11,176 bases of DNA from a virus. Within the stretch, counting starts at the first letter, position 1. Every line of letters begins with the position of its first letter. A model generated the notes under the pieces. The model was not told where the DNA came from and did not search any database. It was given only the letters and a program-made list of their open reading frames with translations. Made by a program: the position numbers and the translations under genes. Below are positions 1 to 8,712 of this stretch, one piece after another. The stretch lies in the UHGV virus genome UHGV-1790366. One strand, written 5' to 3'.

Positions 1-2
1 AC

Positions 3-188
3 CGGATCAACAGTCCCATTAACAGGTCAGGCGCTACCTGGGTAGAAGAAAGCGCCATTCACCAATTTTATAAAATTCTGGAAACGGTACTGATGAAGCG
101 CCGTTTTCAGTGTTTTATAACTGTTTTCACTCCCTGCGGTGTCGAGTTTTGCGGGGGTTATATTTTTCAGAATAGGAGATTATTCTGA
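3..188 (+). CDS. Possible 3' end of an upstream gene (partial, hypothetical protein); reading frame open from the window edge to TGA at 186-188
   Basis: Frame 3 has no stop from position 3 to the TGA at 186-188, and that stop overlaps the ATG at 188 (TGATG), a typical translationally coupled junction. The other two + frames have stops within the first 45 nt. No start codon is visible in the window and no motif was recognised; an open frame of this length could be chance. Confidence 0.25.
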   Translation, partial: RINSPINRSGATWVEESAIHQFYKILETVLMKRRFQCFITVFTPCGVEFCGGYIFQNRRLF

Positions 189-730
189 TGGCTAAGGCTA
201 AAGGCATTAAATTGCCTCAATTTAAGATCCCACTCTTTGAGCATACAACCGTTTTCTTTTGCCCGACCCGCGAGATGTTCTATGAATTTTGCGAAAAGGC
301 AGGAATTCCGATTGAACCTGATTTCGAGTTGGCTGGAGGATTAACGCTTACTTGCACTGGCGAGAATGGTGGTAACTTCTACGTGATCGCAGTATTCAAC
401 AATGAGTTGGGAACGCTGGTCCATGAATGCGCCCACACTACATTCCACGTTTTAAGTGATGTAGGCGTCGTGGCTACCACGGATCCTACCCATCCGGCGA
501 ATGAGACTTACGCTTACATGGTAGGCCGTATCTTCGATGCGTTTTTCCCTATCCTAGCAGAATCAAACGAAGCACAGGTTGCAGCAATGCAGGCGGCAGA
601 AGTCGTCGATCAGGCGCTGGAACAGGCAGAACAGCCGAAGGAAGAAGAAAAGCCAGCAAAGAAAGGCAAACGTAAGCCTAAAGCAAAAGAAGCGTATGTG
701 CCGCGTGTTATGAGCTTTAAACGGGGCTGA
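188..730 (+). CDS. Hypothetical protein with an HExxH motif (HECAH) and a lysine/glutamate-rich basic C-terminal tail
   Basis: 180-codon ORF with ATG at 188 preceded by AGGAG (174-178, 9-nt spacer). The translation contains LVHECAHTTFH (HExxH with an extra His 4 residues downstream) and ends in EQPKEEEKPAKKGKRKPKAKE. Function is not assignable from sequence alone. Confidence 0.7.
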   Translation: MAKAKGIKLPQFKIPLFEHTTVFFCPTREMFYEFCEKAGIPIEPDFELAGGLTLTCTGENGGNFYVIAVFNNELGTLVHECAHTTFHVLSDVGVVATTDPTHPANETYAYMVGRIFDAFFPILAESNEAQVAAMQAAEVVDQALEQAEQPKEEEKPAKKGKRKPKAKEAYVPRVMSFKRG

Positions 731-732
731 TT

Positions 733-801
733 ATGGTTACTTTTCTGTTGGGTTTATTTATCGGAATGGCTGCCGCTGTAATATTACTGGTCGGTGAATA
801 A
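733..801 (+). CDS. Miniprotein 1 (22 aa, MVTFLLGLFIGMAAAVILLVGE), predicted single transmembrane helix
   Basis: ATG at 733 lies 2 nt after the stop of the upstream gene, with GGGG at 723-726. About 20 consecutive hydrophobic residues. First member of a same-strand array of tiny hydrophobic ORFs. Confidence 0.45.
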   Translation: MVTFLLGLFIGMAAAVILLVGE

Positions 802-805
802 TGTT

Positions 806-901
806 ATGGACGATTATATCATCGCCGGATTAATCGGCGTTTCTGTATTTCTGGTAGGTTTTATTATAGCCGTACTGATAACCGTAATGAGCAAGTATTA
901 G
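806..901 (+). CDS. Miniprotein 2 (31 aa, MDDYIIAGLIGVSVFLVGFIIAVLITVMSKY), predicted single transmembrane helix
   Basis: ATG at 806 with GGTGA at 793-797 (8-nt spacer). Acidic N-terminus, about 25-residue hydrophobic core, polar C-terminus SKY. Confidence 0.5.
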   Translation: MDDYIIAGLIGVSVFLVGFIIAVLITVMSKY

Positions 902-914
902 GTGGGGTGGCAAG

Positions 915-989
915 ATGATTGACCCGCTAATTATCCTTTCTGCCTGCGTCGCTGTATGGCTGGCGATAATGATATTCATTGAAAGCTGA
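915..989 (+). CDS. Miniprotein 3 (24 aa, MIDPLIILSACVAVWLAIMIFIES), predicted single transmembrane helix
   Basis: ATG at 915 preceded by the G-rich SD-like GGTGGGGTGG (901-910). Hydrophobic core of about 19 residues. Confidence 0.5.
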   Translation: MIDPLIILSACVAVWLAIMIFIES

Positions 990-1000
990 AGGTATCCACA

Positions 1001-1081
1001 ATGAACGCATACGAAATGCTATTGCTGGTGGCTGTTATTACAGTCATTGCCGTAGATGTTTATCGGGAGTTTAAAAAATGA
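1001..1081 (+). CDS. Miniprotein 4 (26 aa, MNAYEMLLLVAVITVIAVDVYREFKK), hydrophobic core with basic C-terminus
   Basis: ATG at 1001 with GAAGGT at 988-993 (7-nt spacer). Its TGA stop at 1079-1081 overlaps the ATG of the next miniORF (ATGA). Confidence 0.5.
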   Translation: MNAYEMLLLVAVITVIAVDVYREFKK

Positions 1082-1146
1082 AATGGCTTGATTTCCTTTT
1101 CCTGATCGTTGCGATTGTTCTTACCATGACCGCGTTAACTCAATAG
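1078..1146 (+). CDS. Miniprotein 5 (22 aa, MKWLDFLFLIVAIVLTMTALTQ), predicted single transmembrane helix
   Basis: ATG at 1078 overlaps the stop of miniprotein 4; GGGAG at 1065-1069 (8-nt spacer). Hydrophobic core of about 19 residues. Confidence 0.5.
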   Translation: MKWLDFLFLIVAIVLTMTALTQ

Positions 1147-1154
1147 GTGAACGC

Positions 1155-1229
1155 ATGAATGCTATTGATATTATGTTGATCGTGTGTACCTTTGCGTTAA
1201 TTATTATTGGGGTGATTATCAACGTCTGA
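1155..1229 (+). CDS. Miniprotein 6 (24 aa, MNAIDIMLIVCTFALIIIGVIINV), predicted single transmembrane helix
   Basis: ATG at 1155 with AGGTGA at 1145-1150 (4-nt spacer). Same N-polar/hydrophobic-core layout as miniproteins 3 and 4. Confidence 0.5.
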   Translation: MNAIDIMLIVCTFALIIIGVIINV

Positions 1230-1245
1230 CAGTGACTTCTTAATT

Positions 1246-1290
1246 ATGGCTATATGCACGTTGTTAGTCGTTATCGTTTTCTTCGCATAA
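1246..1290 (+). CDS. Miniprotein 7 (14 aa, MAICTLLVVIVFFA), very short hydrophobic peptide; weakest member
   Basis: ATG at 1246 with no convincing SD. Only 14 codons, though entirely hydrophobic and in the gap between miniORFs 6 and 8. It may be a non-coding spacer. Confidence 0.25.
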   Translation: MAICTLLVVIVFFA

Positions 1291-1299
1291 AGGTAAACA

Positions 1300-1383
1300 A
1301 TGAAAGAGCTATTCGACTGGTTGGAAGTATTAACATACTGCGCAAGTTTTGTGGCTTGCGTATATATCATCAATAAATATTAA
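1300..1383 (+). CDS. Miniprotein 8 (27 aa, MKELFDWLEVLTYCASFVACVYIINKY), hydrophobic/amphipathic
   Basis: ATG at 1300 with AGGT at 1291-1294 (5-nt spacer). Hydrophobic core contains two Cys; polar C-terminus NKY. Confidence 0.45.
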   Translation: MKELFDWLEVLTYCASFVACVYIINKY

Positions 1384-1392
1384 AGGGGTGAC

Positions 1393-1539
1393 ATGGTGAG
1401 CAATGAAGAACTAAAAATGGCTGATGAAATCAGAAAGGCACTTGACGCGGCAGAAAACAATGAAACCGTCTACTTTTCCGAACGGGAAGTAGAAAAGATG
1501 ATGGATGAATTTAAATTAAAATTTGAAAAAGATAATTGA
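1393..1539 (+). CDS. Small acidic hydrophilic protein (48 aa, MVSNEELKMADEIRKALDAAENNETVYFSEREVEKMMDEFKLKFEKDN), function unknown
   Basis: ATG at 1393 preceded by AGGGG (1384-1388). The ORF ends 10 nt before the terminase small subunit start. Charged composition looks helical. Below the length cutoff of the ORF track. Confidence 0.45.
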   Translation: MVSNEELKMADEIRKALDAAENNETVYFSEREVEKMMDEFKLKFEKDN

Positions 1540-1549
1540 GAGGTGAAAT

Positions 1550-2035
1550 ATGGCCCGCACTAAAAAGGCAAATGCTGACGATAAAAAGCCAGCAGCTAGA
1601 AAGGTGGGCCGTCCGCATGGTTATACCGAAGAAAAGGCATTAGAGATCTGTGAACTGGTGGCGGACGGTCATAGCGTTAATAAAATTTCGAAGATGCCAG
1701 GTATGCCAACACGTTCAACAATCCTTAAGTGGTTCCGTGATGTGCCGGAATTTTCGGACATGTATGTGAGAGCGAAGGAAATAGGTTTTGAGGTATTAGC
1801 TGATGAGATCATCGATATAGCTGATGCGGCGGAGAACATTGATAAAGATGAATTACGCCGCCACCAACTAATGATTGAAACGCGTAAATGGTTACTGGCA
1901 AAACTGCAACCGCGTAAATACGGTGAACGCGTCACACAGGAGATCGTCGGCAACAGGGAGGAAGCGCCCGTACAGGTAGAAGTCACAAAAGAAGAGATCG
2001 CCCGCATCGTCCAGGAAGTAGAAGACGAGGTGTGA
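1550..2035 (+). CDS. Terminase small subunit (DNA-packaging protein), putative
   Basis: 161-aa ORF with ATG at 1550 and AGGTGA at 1541-1546. Basic N-terminus with a likely helix-turn-helix region (GRPHGYTEEKALEICELVADGHSVNKISKM). Sits immediately upstream of, and 4 nt overlapping, the large terminase gene, the canonical position. Confidence 0.65.
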   Translation: MARTKKANADDKKPAARKVGRPHGYTEEKALEICELVADGHSVNKISKMPGMPTRSTILKWFRDVPEFSDMYVRAKEIGFEVLADEIIDIADAAENIDKDELRRHQLMIETRKWLLAKLQPRKYGERVTQEIVGNREEAPVQVEVTKEEIARIVQEVEDEV

Positions 2036-2037
2036 TT

Positions 2038-3516
2038 ATGTTGACAATCAAAGAACGAGTTATTCAGTCCAAATGTGAAAACGACGGCCTGTTTTTCAAT
2101 CGCTATTTCTACAAGCAAGCGAACGGAACGAAGATGTTAATCTCAGGCCATCATTTAGCCATCCGTGATGCACTGCAACGCGTTATTAATGGTGAGATAA
2201 CCCGACTCATCATTAACATTCCTCCAGGGTACGGTAAAACCATGATCGCAACCATCAATATGATGGCGCGGTCCCTCGCAATAAATCCCCGCACACGCTT
2301 CCTTCACGTTTCCTATTCCAACAACCTGGCATTACTCAATTCCTCTACTGTAAGAAACATGATCTGTACGCCTGACTATCAGGCAATGTGGCCCATGAAG
2401 ATCCGCAACGATGCAAACTCAAAATCGATGTGGTGGACCGAATACGGTGGCGGCGTGTATGCGACGTCATCACTTGGTCAGGTGACTGGGTTCCGTGCGG
2501 GGTACATGGAATCAGGATTTAACGGCGCGTTAATCATAGACGACCCATTAAAACCCGCTGACGCTTACTCCGACGTGGTGAGAAAGCAGGTAAACACCAA
2601 CTATAACGATACGCTTGCTTCACGTCTGGCAGTGCAAACAACGCCTGTTATCGTCATCATGCAGCGCATCCACTATGATGATTTGTCCGGCTACCTGCTA
2701 CGCGGTGGCAGTGGCGAGAAGTGGCATCACCTTAACCTGCCAGTGAAGATAGACAATAGCCTGGGCTACTGGGATCTGTACCCTGAAAACGAGTTCGCTA
2801 TCCCTATTCCTCACAACCTGCCAGATGGCTGGCTATGGCCTAAAAAGCACAATGATATCCATGAAGCTGGACTGAAAGCACACAGACGGTCATTTGAAGC
2901 CCAGTACATGCAGCGCCCGCGTAAATTCGACGAAGAGGGTGCGTTATGGACTGAAGCGATGATAACCGCCGCGCACCGGATGCAGATAACGCAGGACAAG
3001 ATCCGCACCGTGATAGCTATTGACCCGGCGACAACATCATCTGATGAATCTGACGAAACCGGGATTGTGGCGTGTTCCGCTTATGGTGGCGGTAAGAATG
3101 CTCAGTATTCTGTTGATGGTGACTATTCGGGCCGCATGTCGCCTAACGACTGGGCGCACGCATCAATGAAAGCATATGACATCCATGAAGCTGACGCGAT
3201 AGTTATCGAAACCAACCAGGGCGGGGAAATGGCAGAGGCCACGTTGCGTAATGCCGGATTCAAAGGCCGCATTGTTAAGGTGCACGCAAGCAAAGGTAAA
3301 TTCGCCCGCGCCGAGCCAATATCAGCACTGTATGCACAAGGAAGGGTGGCCCACACAGGCAGCCTGTACACGCTGGAAAATCAAATGATGGAATACGTGC
3401 CAGCTACCGCCAAAAAATCCCCTGACCGTATGGATGCGATGGTATGGGGGATCACTGAATTAAGCCAACCACAGGCGATGGGTCTTATGTTACCTAAACG
3501 CCTGCGCGGATTTTAA
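2038..3516 (+). CDS. Terminase large subunit (ATPase plus nuclease)
   Basis: Walker A-like IPPGYGKT and Walker B-like ALIIDDP in the N-terminal half; C-terminal acidic nuclease-like motifs (VIAIDPATT, DAIVIETNQGGE). Start moved to ATG 2038 (GAGGTG SD at 2027-2032, 5-nt spacer) from the ORF-track GTG at 2032. Followed by the portal gene. Confidence 0.88.
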   Translation: MLTIKERVIQSKCENDGLFFNRYFYKQANGTKMLISGHHLAIRDALQRVINGEITRLIINIPPGYGKTMIATINMMARSLAINPRTRFLHVSYSNNLALLNSSTVRNMICTPDYQAMWPMKIRNDANSKSMWWTEYGGGVYATSSLGQVTGFRAGYMESGFNGALIIDDPLKPADAYSDVVRKQVNTNYNDTLASRLAVQTTPVIVIMQRIHYDDLSGYLLRGGSGEKWHHLNLPVKIDNSLGYWDLYPENEFAIPIPHNLPDGWLWPKKHNDIHEAGLKAHRRSFEAQYMQRPRKFDEEGALWTEAMITAAHRMQITQDKIRTVIAIDPATTSSDESDETGIVACSAYGGGKNAQYSVDGDYSGRMSPNDWAHASMKAYDIHEADAIVIETNQGGEMAEATLRNAGFKGRIVKVHASKGKFARAEPISALYAQGRVAHTGSLYTLENQMMEYVPATAKKSPDRMDAMVWGITELSQPQAMGLMLPKRLRGF

Positions 3517-7659: not shown

Positions 7660-8712
7660 ATGTTGTTTAATAAACACAACCTTGCTACCAACAGCCGCAT
7701 TCGTGCCCAGTGGGATCACCTTTGGGCGCAGCGCAACATGTTCAATGATCAGGACGGCGCTCTTATTGCCGCAAATATGGCAAACATGACCGCTGACATC
7801 CTGGCATGTAATGCCGTTGGCGGCTTCGATCAGGAGTTCTGGAAAGCTGTCGATAACCAGATTATCGAAATGAGCACCGAAGAGACTGGTATTGAAATCG
7901 TAAACGATTTGATGGCTGTGCAAACCGTATTGCCAATCGGTAAAACCGAGAAAATGTACAGCGTATCCGGTGATATTAACGATGAAGTTGTCGTTAGTAT
8001 CGATGGTCAAGCCCCGCATGGCTTCGATCACACTGAATATGGCAGCGATGGCGACCCGATCCCGATGTTCGCAGCGGGTTACGGTGTCAGCTGGCGTCAT
8101 TCCGAAGGTCTGAAAACTGTTGGTATTGACCTTGCACTGGATAGCCAGCGCCTGAAACTGCAAAAATTCAACAAGGCCCGCGTTGATTATTACCTTAACG
8201 GTAACGCAAAAATCAACGTCAACGGTAAACCTGGCCAGGGTATTAAAAATCACCGCAATACCCAGCAACTAGTCATGACCTCCGAAGATCTCACCACTGA
8301 CGGATTCGATGCTCTCATCAAATTCTTCACCACTGGTGCATTCGGTGTTATGGCCCGCAACAACCGCGTTGACCAGTATGATCTCATGTGGGTGTCACCT
8401 GAAATTATGGCTAACCTGGCAGCGCCGCACATTGCAAACGGGACTGTCGTAGGCAGTGTTCTGAATATCGTTAAACCGTTCATTCCGGTTAAAGAAATCC
8501 GTCAGACCTATGCACTGAAAGGCAACGAGTTCATTGCCTATCAACGCCGCCGCAACGTCATTACCCCGCTGGTTGGTATGACTACTGGCGTAGTGCCTCT
8601 GCCGCGCACCATGCCTACCGATAACTACAACTTCAAAATCATGTCTGCCGAAGGCTTACAAATCACCTGCGACATGCTGGGCCGTTCCGGTGTTGTTTAC
8701 GGTCACAAATAA
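7660..8712 (+). CDS. Major capsid protein
   Basis: 350-aa ORF with ATG 7660 and strong SD AGAGGTGA (7647-7654, 5-nt spacer). It follows the scaffold and decoration genes and is followed by a strong intrinsic terminator, as expected for the most highly expressed head gene. Confidence 0.75.
   Translation: MLFNKHNLATNSRIRAQWDHLWAQRNMFNDQDGALIAANMANMTADILACNAVGGFDQEFWKAVDNQIIEMSTEETGIEIVNDLMAVQTVLPIGKTEKMYSVSGDINDEVVVSIDGQAPHGFDHTEYGSDGDPIPMFAAGYGVSWRHSEGLKTVGIDLALDSQRLKLQKFNKARVDYYLNGNAKINVNGKPGQGIKNHRNTQQLVMTSEDLTTDGFDALIKFFTTGAFGVMARNNRVDQYDLMWVSPEIMANLAAPHIANGTVVGSVLNIVKPFIPVKEIRQTYALKGNEFIAYQRRRNVITPLVGMTTGVVPLPRTMPTDNYNFKIMSAEGLQITCDMLGRSGVVYGHK

Follow-up and report, generated by a model that had tools for sequence, protein, structure and literature searches.

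In the window analyzed here, a stretch of 11,176 nucleotides from an E. coli temperate phage (UHGV virus genome UHGV-1790366), an array of miniature hydrophobic genes lies at positions 733–1383, with the lysis genes on one side and the DNA-packaging genes on the other. A preliminary description of this DNA had reported eight consecutive + strand ORFs in all three frames at this place, and both coordinates and frames were confirmed. Its statement that ORFs of at least 60 codons are absent between the HExxH protein gene and the terminase small subunit gene (TerS) also held for both strands of 731–1549, where the longest ORF encodes 58 aa on the minus strand. The array comprises seven intact + strand genes for predicted single-helix hydrophobic peptides of 22–31 aa, together with one gene that has lost its start codon. 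The comparison set consists of 66 related loci from mEp021-like ('mEpimmI') E. coli phages and prophages, and the features of the window are as follows.

68–118, + strand: terminator-like hairpin, then TGTTTTAT, upstream of the operon segment with the array
188–730, + strand: HExxH protein gene, 180 aa, phrog_1365; its stop codon lies 2 nt 5′ of the first miniORF
733–801, + strand: miniORF A, 22 aa, MVTFLLGLFIGMAAAVILLVGE; Kyte-Doolittle window 2.96; 31 of 66 loci; pN/pS 0.26
806–901, + strand: miniORF B, 31 aa, MDDYIIAGLIGVSVFLVGFIIAVLITVMSKY; Kyte-Doolittle window 3.08; 48 of 66 loci; pN/pS 0.24
915–989, + strand: miniORF C, 24 aa, MIDPLIILSACVAVWLAIMIFIES; at least 57 of 66 loci; pN/pS 0.26
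1001–1081, + strand: miniORF F, 26 aa, MNAYEMLLLVAVITVIAVDVYREFKK; C-terminus basic; 63 of 66 loci; pN/pS 0.24
1078–1146, + strand: miniORF H, 22 aa, MKWLDFLFLIVAIVLTMTALTQ; 59 of 66 loci; pN/pS 0.12
1155–1229, + strand: miniORF I, 24 aa, MNAIDIMLIVCTFALIIIGVIINV; 50 of 66 loci; pN/pS 0.38
1222–1290, + strand: family J gene with the start lost (ATG to ACG at 1222–1224) and the frame intact (T-SDSDFLIMAICTLLVVIVFFA)
1300–1383, + strand: miniORF M, 27 aa, MKELFDWLEVLTYCASFVACVYIINKY; 58 of 66 loci; pN/pS 0.08
1393–1539, + strand: ORF N, 48 aa, acidic and hydrophilic, net charge -6; a non-membrane, optional cassette
1550–2035, + strand: terminase small subunit gene, Sf6 type (PF20901, E = 1e-36), the downstream border of the array

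The gaps in the window measure 2, 4, 13, 11, -4 (ATGA), 8, 16, and 9 nt; thus the ATGA overlap of the preliminary description stands, while its gap range of 2–17 nt is corrected to 2–16 nt. The overlap, formed by the start of H and the stop of F, is kept in relatives. Duplexes with the anti-Shine-Dalgarno (anti-SD) sequence at seven starts have energies between -3.7 and -8.4 kcal/mol, whereas the background averages -2.4 kcal/mol, roughly supporting the earlier assignment of an SD to seven of the eight ORFs. The best SD of the array, GGTGGGGTGG (-8.4 kcal/mol), belongs to miniORF C, which is nearly universal and nearly invariant (23 DNA alleles, 11 protein alleles). Relatives have cassettes D and E inserted between C and F, and miniORF I represents one of two allelic forms whose allele groups, q and r, are mutually exclusive across loci. 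MiniORF M is always the final membrane gene of the array and is the most conserved, with 30 DNA alleles and 7 protein alleles. An alternative GTG start for miniORF B lies at 794. The C peptide begins MIDPLII, and those of I and F begin MNAID and MNAYE. ORF N is a ninth small gene, outside the 733–1383 interval first described, and occurs in some relatives only (L007, L008, and L013), where PGAP calls a hypothetical protein.

The eighth of the ORFs first described (1246–1290) did not hold up as a separate gene. Family J has 22 codons at full length in relatives (MSDSDFLI...; the J gene of locus L001 starts ATGTCTGAC), and the 14-codon ORF in the window is the 3′ part of a gene of this family. 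Its internal ATG at 1246, in the J frame, has no SD (duplex -0.2 kcal/mol). The ACG at the position of the J start arose through a change that leaves the peptide encoded by gene I, which overlaps there, unaltered, and the start-less allele is present in six loci.

Hydrophobicity, selection and gene content

A 13-residue Kyte-Doolittle window of at least 2.8 (up to 3.3) was found in seven of the eight ORFs, M (1300–1383) being the one with a lower value (1.9); no minus-strand ORF of the array region reached such hydrophobicity. By Eisenberg analysis all eight fall in the transmembrane class and are not amphipathic (<H> 0.64–0.96, muH 0.05–0.18). Small-xxx-small motifs number 13 vs. 7.9 expected (p = 0.026). 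The strongly hydrophobic miniORFs of the whole 11-kb window all lie within 733–1290. The + strand is T-rich (36% T); nevertheless, 2000 dinucleotide-preserving shuffles gave a mean of 0.095 such ORFs and a maximum of 2, compared to 7 observed, and a chance origin of the hydrophobic ORFs is thereby excluded.

Across the 66 loci, pooled pN/pS was 0.22 in the proposed frames vs. 0.92 and 1.40 in the shifted frames, with synonymous divergence (pS) of about 0.14–0.45 and values of 0.06–0.38 for the individual families, all 15 of them. Polymorphic sites were distributed over the codon positions as 113/74/228 (chi-square p = 7e-21), and start, stop, and length are kept within each family. C, F, H, and M occur in nearly all loci and hardly vary; in locus L065, the C, F, and M peptides are 100% identical to those of the window while the adjoining HExxH protein is only 61% identical. 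Judged by comparative sequence evidence, the miniORFs are real protein-coding genes and not pseudogene debris, and the selection signal is as clear as that for ordinary genes. The view that they are separate genes and not a single frameshifted membrane-protein gene is borne out by the own start, stop, and length of each across the loci and by purifying selection confined to its own frame. A single intact longer gene in relatives, named in the preliminary description as the sign of an eroded pseudogene, was found neither in the 66 loci nor in the P22-like phages that share the HExxH gene. In these phages, whose HExxH homologs have 37–46% identity and, in ST64T and ST160, lie between the lysis and terminase genes, the slot between HExxH gene and TerS is taken by a 134-aa gene whose product is unrelated and soluble, not a membrane protein.

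The same peptides recur in the related loci in colinear order, and always between the HExxH gene and TerS. The content of the array is extremely variable beside its conserved flanks: relatives carry 3–13 such genes each, drawn from about 15–20 partly paralogous families with peptides of up to 47 aa, and 45 arrangements occur among 64 loci. The breakpoints of indels and cassettes fall exactly at gene borders, i.e., at SD/ATG junctions, and whole genes come and go as precise cassettes. Most members are freely gained or lost, down to three genes in one locus, which shows that each is dispensable by itself; accessory genes for host interaction would explain this no less well than lysis control. 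Single-linkage clustering at 55% identity merged nearly all peptides into one cluster, which was taken as a hint of paralogy; the families were therefore set by stricter thresholds and regular-expression definitions. Against segment-preserving shuffles, 19% of 210 family pairs had a similarity z-score above 2, the highest being h-F (7.9), D-m (7.5), G-K (5.8), H-K (5.4), and F-I (4.9). DNA repeats were absent within the array, and the one weak 18-nt pair detected lies outside it.

The array seems confined to the mEp021-like group, within the detection limits for 22-aa peptides, because only close relatives were recovered by several searches. A TerS-anchored scan of GTDB species representatives gave no relatives, a degenerate DNA pattern for peptide M found nothing in the same genomes, low-stringency blastn against 50,697 phage records matched only seven mEp-type phages, and family L (47 aa) had homologs only in relatives of at least 70% identity. 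In family searches, PHROGs gave no match for the seven window peptides, NCBIfam gave none at E <= 1 for eight peptides (the seven window genes and full-length J from relatives), and Pfam, searched with B, E, and L only, gave matches only far below gathering scores. The nearest approach to any holin family was a weak match of family L, which is absent from the window, to phrog_920 (E = 0.04).

Expression signals and predicted topology

A Q-like antiterminator gene and the lysis cassette, with holin, lysozyme, and Rz, lie upstream of the array on the same strand, the cassette at a distance of ~0.8 kb; about 280 nt, the terminator hairpin, and the HExxH gene intervene between cassette and array. 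The hairpin corresponds to TERM_6 annotated in phage mEp021 (window 78–110), and RNAfold gave -24.1 kcal/mol for the region 61–135. A consensus scan of window positions 1–2100, blind to weak or non-sigma-70 promoters, found no sigma-70-like promoter on the + strand, and terminator-like sites were no commoner than in shuffles, with no clear internal terminator. Of 529 gaps among relatives, 98% do not exceed 20 nt and 36% are overlaps; coding sequence makes up 92% of the interval. Given no detectable promoter of its own, the hairpin and Q-like gene upstream, and gaps of 2–16 nt or ATGA overlaps, the array is probably transcribed within a late lytic operon comprising the lysis genes, the HExxH gene, the array, terminase, and head genes, and its genes are probably translated by coupling. 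Expression from the prophage may still occur, as consensus-only scans miss weak or non-sigma-70 promoters.

The N-terminal flanks of the helices are acidic, and the C-terminal flanks, of 2–6 residues with 0–3 basic residues, are neutral or basic. The acidic residue before the helix is invariant within families, and charge rules therefore predict an N-out/C-in topology. Proteins under 45–50 aa are inserted post-translationally (review PMC12648545); the array peptides are too short for co-translational targeting, and therefore insertion after translation by the SRP/YidC/SecYEG route would be expected. Neither the window nor the annotation of the MagusPhagus genome contains a transporter or exporter gene.

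Possible roles of the array

The preliminary description had offered host membrane depolarization or takeover, superinfection exclusion, modulation of lysis timing, and anti-defence as candidate roles, and the present evidence narrows these towards a late-lytic, membrane-located role. We infer that the peptides are late-acting inner-membrane microproteins that would most plausibly modulate membrane state or lysis timing, or else be aimed at host-membrane targets. In the reading we prefer, the peptides would build up in the inner membrane during the late phase of infection and work through contacts between helices; the helix is under strong purifying selection in its own frame only, which suggests specific partners, not generic hydrophobicity. 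Their most plausible effect would be on membrane integrity or energization and, through it, on the trigger time of the phage's own class II holin (PF16080), and the variable gene content may be a means of tuning this triggering. Taken as a whole, that these are coupled late-operon micropeptides of the inner membrane, most plausibly tuning membrane state or lysis timing, has in our estimate about an even chance of being right, the function being the least certain part. Against a lysis role, the array stands apart from the lysis cassette, the phage already carries a complete holin, endolysin, and spanin set, and the peptides matched no holin family.

Described systems close to the array include holin-like transmembrane proteins found beside actinophage lysis cassettes, which are expressed late and in F1 phages have been shown to regulate lysis (PMC13056207, PMC11385102). 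LysF1a and LysF1b of cluster F1 mycobacteriophages and four proteins of the Gordonia phage Xenia2 resemble the array as sets of several small transmembrane proteins near lysis genes, and differ from it in being larger where a size is given (LysF1a has 88 aa and two transmembrane domains) and only two to four in number. The array, in contrast, lies a terminator and another gene away from the lysis cassette, and its peptides, unlike typical holins, have no charged C-terminal tail and no holin family match. Cluster AU Arthrobacter phages encode many small transmembrane proteins, mostly single-domain and averaging 137 aa; these actinobacteriophage sets are not described as contiguous and their mutual relatedness is not stated (PMC5679793), whereas the array genes encode 22–31 aa (up to 47 in relatives) and are contiguous, partly paralogous, and variable by cassette.

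The S. aureus PSM-alpha peptides and leaderless multi-peptide bacteriocins, of ~20–44 aa, are encoded in tandem operons with their own SDs. They share with the array the arrangement of several peptides of roughly 20–30 aa head to tail in one operon; PSM-alpha and bacteriocin peptides are amphipathic or cationic and exported, whereas the array peptides, neutral or acidic in charge, have an uninterrupted hydrophobic core, and no exporter gene lies nearby. In bacteria, AcrZ, MgtS, MgrB, CydX, and YohP are small membrane proteins that regulate larger ones. Such proteins have fewer than 50 aa and one transmembrane helix, are inserted post-translationally through SRP/YidC/SecYEG, and bind by helix-helix contacts (PMC12648545). 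The array genes show the in-frame purifying selection, conserved start codon, and SD looked for in this class; unlike them, the bacterial genes are single, chromosomal, and individually regulated, with no paralogous phage late-operon array among them.

A different function for the same peptides is possible, if clearly less probable than lysis or membrane tuning: an accessory host-interaction battery in which every micropeptide would have its own binding partner among the inner-membrane proteins of the host and the turnover of cassettes would reflect an arms race. Such partners could be a transporter or DNA-entry route that rival phages use, a protease, or an effector of abortive infection or defence that is bound to the membrane. 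The 45 arrangements in 64 loci, with 3–13 genes between conserved flanks, agree with this, as does the purifying selection on each kept member, which points to specific partners; the other accessory gene that P22-like phages hold between the HExxH gene and TerS marks a variable accessory slot, and bacterial small membrane proteins commonly bind larger membrane proteins (PMC12648545). However, the near-universal and invariant C, F, H, and M are unlike products of an arms race, genes placed in the late operon would come late for counter-defence, and the searches of Pfam, PHROGs, and NCBIfam described above were negative. Without a predicted promoter, the prophage expression needed for classical superinfection exclusion also remains unsupported: the own or early promoter of the T4 Imm, HK97 gp15, and P22 SieA type was not found in the consensus scan, and the array genes are coupled to late genes. 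Another reading, which we consider unlikely, would make the array a novel kind of phage module, a recombining 'cassette library' of paralogous single-helix ligands, each inactivating or hijacking a different inner-membrane protein and swapped at SD/ATG junctions for host match. Targets under this reading could include the holin, a protease, a route of DNA entry, or an effector of host defence. If this holds, the array would parallel anti-defence gene hotspots at the level of the membrane, with proteins of the smallest possible size.

The earlier comparison with type I toxins was not sustained beyond a resemblance in shape. Some type I toxin genes, such as ldr and ibs, occur as tandem chromosomal copies. 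The toxins of this class (TisB, DinQ, Ibs, Ldr, ShoB, and Hok) are, like the array products, single-helix inner-membrane peptides (19–50 aa) with few polar end residues; DinQ, a 27-aa inner-membrane peptide, depolarizes the membrane and lowers ATP (PMC3567139). The array could accordingly be pictured as depolarizing peptides curbed by antisense RNAs and serving as prophage addiction or abortive-infection modules, and the size (below 60 aa), the one hydrophobic transmembrane helix, the short polar ends, and the lack of any other domain would suit such a picture (PMC12648545, PMC3567139). We nonetheless regard it as highly improbable. Type I toxin genes are transcribed independently, each behind a structured leader and each paired with an antisense RNA as antitoxin, whereas the array consists of 8–13 different genes 2–16 nt apart in a single phage operon, colinear and coupled with phage late genes, and units of 70–110 nt leave no space for a promoter, a long 5′ UTR, and an antitoxin gene. 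No antisense RNA signal above chance emerged: promoter-like sites on the minus strand numbered 3 vs. 4.8 ± 2.3 in shuffles (by a consensus scan, which a novel sRNA could escape), and Rfam gave no match at E <= 1 on either strand of 1–2100. NCBIfam likewise had no family matching any of the eight peptides searched, and Pfam had none at gathering scores for B, E, and L.

Sf6-type terminases recognize a pac site near terS. The idea that the peptides are irrelevant, i.e., that the array is debris of a multi-pass gene, chance ORFs, a means of ribosome delivery to terminase, or a DNA-level packaging signal, could draw on T-richness that favors hydrophobic codons, on the position directly 5′ of TerS, near where a pac site might lie, and on the decay of one member (J) in the window, but it is the least probable of all and appears already largely refuted by amino-acid selection in the proposed frame only, at the pS given above, together with the conserved starts, stops, and lengths, the lack of a long gene at this position in any relative, the two such ORFs at most in shuffles that keep the T-richness, and the absence of internal DNA repeats.

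Annotation gap and significance

Array genes are almost never annotated and are shorter than the usual reporting length of gene callers. Six of the seven intact peptides were absent from a collection of 15 billion proteins; RefSeq (PGAP) records leave about 700–900 bp blank at the array in every prophage inspected, and in PHANOTATE-based records some of them are called in the wrong frame. The terms 'small ORF,' 'transmembrane,' and 'terminase' do not appear in the mEpimmI genome paper (PMC11893012), and literature searches on the peptide sequences and on comparable arrays found no description, in agreement with the earlier remark that no described system of this kind was known.

The phage group carrying the array is common in the human gut. 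Members of the group use E. coli K-12 as host, and isolates are in hand (PMC11893012). The array is thus an unusually tractable system, in which micropeptides under selection occur in a common, culturable phage group. It may inform the roles of phage 'dark-matter' microproteins, the way in which proteins of ~22 residues insert into the membrane and find partners, and the expansion and shuffling of multigene microprotein families. Should the peptides turn out to time lysis or to act as specific inhibitors that bind helices, they would be ready-made minimal tools against bacterial membrane proteins.

Gene order and excess of hydrophobic miniORFs

The window represents the late gene region of a temperate phage that infects E. 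coli and belongs to the mEp021 ('mEpimmI') group, and megablast searches with positions 600-1600 matched seven phages (MagusPhagus, mEp554, mEp010, mEp044, mEp013, mEp021 and mEp515) as well as prophages, these in 35 of the 5426 complete genomes of E. coli. Genes and other features occur in the order listed below.

Features of the window
68-118: terminator hairpin, conserved, about 70 nt 5' of the HExxH gene
188-730: gene for the HExxH protein, 180 aa
733-1383, + strand: array of small ORFs
1393-1539: 48-aa ORF, strongly acidic and hydrophilic (net charge -6), with a good SD
1550-2035: terminase small subunit (TerS) gene, Sf6-type (PF20901)
3' of the TerS gene: large subunit, portal and head genes

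The acidic 48-aa ORF, which separates TerS from the final membrane miniORF and has its stop 10 nt 5' of TerS, is an optional cassette carried by only some relatives, and is the sole gene of the interval annotated by PGAP (as a hypothetical protein). The insertion sites of HNH endonuclease genes vary across this late region: in mEp013 (locus L005, 1498-1983) such a gene lies between the HExxH gene, whose C-terminal part is also replaced, and the array, while in the metagenomic relative L065 (2752-3273) it lies within the lysis cassette at the lysozyme/Rz junction. L065 also carries, from 8491-8534 onward, a gene overlapping the portal gene end whose Pfam matches (Phage_Mu_F and Intein_splicing) suggest a head-morphogenesis gene with an intein.

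All eight hydrophobic ORFs of the preliminary description were found on the + strand, spread over three frames, in an interval whose ORFs are all shorter than 60 codons. In seven of the eight peptides, and in no ORF of the minus strand, a 13-residue Kyte-Doolittle window reached at least 2.8, and dinucleotide-preserving shuffles of the region (n = 2000) yielded a mean of 0.095 such ORFs, with a maximum of 2. When the whole 11-kb window was scanned, every strongly hydrophobic ORF of 14-50 codons fell within 733-1290; in the 50 kb of MagusPhagus, 7 of 12 sit in the homologous 1-kb stretch. By Eisenberg values, all eight peptides are of transmembrane class and not amphipathic (<H> 0.64-0.96, muH 0.05-0.18). 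The second codon positions of the miniORFs are T in 57% of cases, versus 26% in the window's large genes, and miniORF third positions resemble those of ordinary genes.

Coding evidence across related loci

We assembled 66 related loci, comprising, from annotated records, 6 loci of phages and 10 of prophages, then 48 IMG/VR contigs for which TerS served as anchor, and 2 metagenomic contigs located via distant HExxH protein homologs. Wherever a locus had both the HExxH gene and TerS, the interval between these two anchors (318-1154 bp) was filled throughout with hydrophobic miniORFs, which occupy 92% of it and total 593 in 64 loci (median 9 per locus, range 3-13); 98% of intercistronic gaps do not exceed 20 nt, and overlaps, for the most part ATGA, make up 36%. 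Recurring families of invariant order can be recognised among the peptides, namely A/A2/A3, B, C, (h), D, E, F, G, H, I, J, K, L and M, of which the window has A, B, C, F, H, I, J and M. Pooled pN/pS (Nei-Gojobori) was 0.22 in the proposed frames versus 0.92 and 1.40 in the two shifted frames of identical DNA, with all 15 families within 0.06-0.38, and polymorphic sites were distributed 113/74/228 over the three codon positions (chi-square p = 7e-21). Family M has 7 protein alleles from 30 DNA alleles, and peptides C, F and M are unchanged in a contig whose HExxH protein is 61% identical to that of the window. Since selection is frame-specific, families recur and amino acids are conserved, the ORFs can be neither products of chance nor fragments of an eroded pseudogene, a signal acting only at the DNA level is likewise excluded, and non-coding explanations are unlikely. 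The observation is real, statistically robust and evolutionarily validated, and the ORFs had been correctly read as separate miniature membrane-protein genes.

The count of eight needs one amendment, in that seven are intact genes while the 14-codon ORF at 1246-1290 is the tail of family J. In relatives, J has 22 codons (MSDSDFLI...) and its start ATG overlaps the terminal codons of gene I (..AAT GTC TGA). At 1222-1224 of the window, ACG replaces this ATG through a substitution silent in gene I (AAT to AAC); the stretch from the upstream stop to the ACG offers no alternative start codon, and the internal ATG at 1246 lacks an SD (-0.2 kcal/mol versus -3.7 to -8.4 at the other seven starts). The window therefore carries seven intact genes and one that is probably inactive; the start-lost allele is shared by six loci.

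Public annotations across the array appear to be wrong. PGAP left the interval blank in all RefSeq prophages inspected, except for a probably spurious antisense ORF in one genome; in E. coli O157:H7 LSU61 (L012 1318-1707, minus strand) the PGAP call is a 129-aa antisense 'hypothetical protein' that spans miniORFs A-D. PHANOTATE-type annotations call some miniORFs, partly in the wrong frame or as TTG-start fusions, and such ORFs replace conserved miniORFs in the MagusPhagus record (L001 1892-2095, 2073-2165 and 2359-2484). An exact-sequence search of a 15-billion-protein collection lacked six of the seven intact window peptides and held peptide F as a single entry, 'MAG: hypothetical protein'. 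The arrangement was undescribed in the literature searched, as had been proposed: the terms 'small ORF', 'transmembrane', 'terminase' and 'small protein' are all missing from the text of a 2025 paper describing genomes and proteomes of these phages (PMC11893012), a survey of Enterobacteriaceae microproteins (PMC11188072) mentions neither prophages nor tandem arrays, and four of the peptide sequences gave no literature mention. The array was not found outside the mEp021-type group, similarity detection of 22-aa peptides being inherently limited.

Expression context and evolution of the array

TERM_6, annotated in mEp021, maps to window 78-110 and forms a strong hairpin (-24 kcal/mol); the hairpin at 68-118 is followed by TGTTTTAT and was missed by a simple terminator scan. 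This correspondence with TERM_6 implies that expression of the terminase genes, the array and the HExxH gene requires antitermination. The holin, lysozyme and Rz genes lie upstream on the same strand, with a Q-like antiterminator gene still farther away, and the first miniORF starts 2 nt past the HExxH stop codon. A consensus-based scan, which a weak or atypical promoter could escape, detected no + strand sigma-70-like promoter in 1-2100. The sole + strand terminator-like match within the array (823-839) is within chance (3 matches in 1-2100 versus 2.1 in shuffles), no Rfam family matched, and the array has no DNA repeats. We infer that its transcription is late, antiterminated and polycistronic, with translational coupling. 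On what would be the same late transcript, MagusPhagus (L067 38382-44381, minus strand) has a second block of small genes, about 25 consecutive and co-directional ones (~37-120 aa), all hypothetical, flanked by the Q-like antiterminator and holin genes; none scored as strongly hydrophobic in a scan limited to ORFs of 14-50 aa.

The 64 loci display 45 distinct arrangements. When the window was aligned with MagusPhagus, mEp044 and mEp021, the differences proved to be exact indels of entire genes, in that each of the cassettes D, D+E and G is either there or missing and the breakpoints coincide with the SD/ATG(AA) junction. Against shuffles keeping the polar-core-polar layout, 19% of 210 family pairs exceeded z = 2, indicating relatedness beyond composition (h-F 7.9, D-m 7.5, G-K 5.8, H-K 5.4, F-I 4.9, F-L 4.4, h-D 4.3); family h resembles a D/F hybrid and family m has the C-terminus of D. 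The most economical interpretation is a multigene family that grew by tandem duplication and is reshuffled by recombination between similar gene starts. HExxH homologs occur in P22-like phages at 37-46% identity (e.g., ST64T orf-129), and there the slot 5' of TerS holds one unrelated soluble 134-aa gene, which makes it a variable accessory position, with no sign of a long membrane-gene ancestor.

Peptide properties, known systems and function

Each peptide has 2-8 polar residues, a hydrophobic core of 15-20 residues and 2-6 C-terminal residues. The segment before the core has at least one acidic and at most one basic residue in 19 of 21 family representatives, the acidic residue being invariant inside almost every family, and the C-terminal ends are neutral or basic (e.g., YREFKK, SKY, NKY, KNVV); by the positive-inside rule, this charge distribution predicts an N-out/C-in topology. 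For proteins below about 45-50 aa, co-translational targeting is not possible, and membrane insertion follows their release, by way of SRP with YidC or SecYEG (PMC12648545).

The peptides tested matched no family in PHROGs, NCBIfam or Pfam. Holins and antiholins are compatible with the site near the lysis genes and the inferred late expression, but the peptides match no such family and have no charged domain at the C-terminus, and a full lysis cassette is already present in the phage. In actinophages, several holin-like transmembrane proteins encoded beside lysis cassettes are known to regulate lysis; these are fewer than the peptides of the array and, where size is given, larger. Exclusion proteins require prophage expression, whereas the consensus-based scan detected no promoter for the array, and PSM-like or bacteriocin-like peptides, besides being exported, are amphipathic, a property that the peptides described here lack.

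Our preferred reading is that late-expressed inner-membrane micropeptides would modulate membrane state and lysis timing. A serious rival is that they form a battery binding host membrane proteins. Replacements within families are scarce relative to synonymous change, 167 of 204 replacement types swap one hydrophobic or small residue for another, and small-xxx-small motifs are modestly enriched, chiefly in A, A2, B, C and E (13 versus an expected 7.9, p = 0.026); this pattern may fit specific helix-helix contacts somewhat better than an unspecific loading of the membrane. A type I toxin system, whose likeness had been noted in the preliminary description, is unlikely: the shape is alike, but the defining regulatory architecture is absent, the array showing no antisense RNA in the consensus-based and Rfam scans and no separate unit or leader.

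The array is best filed under generic small single-pass membrane proteins, a class in which its organisation is unusual, with many distinct microgenes that are contiguous, coupled, partly paralogous and cassette-variable.
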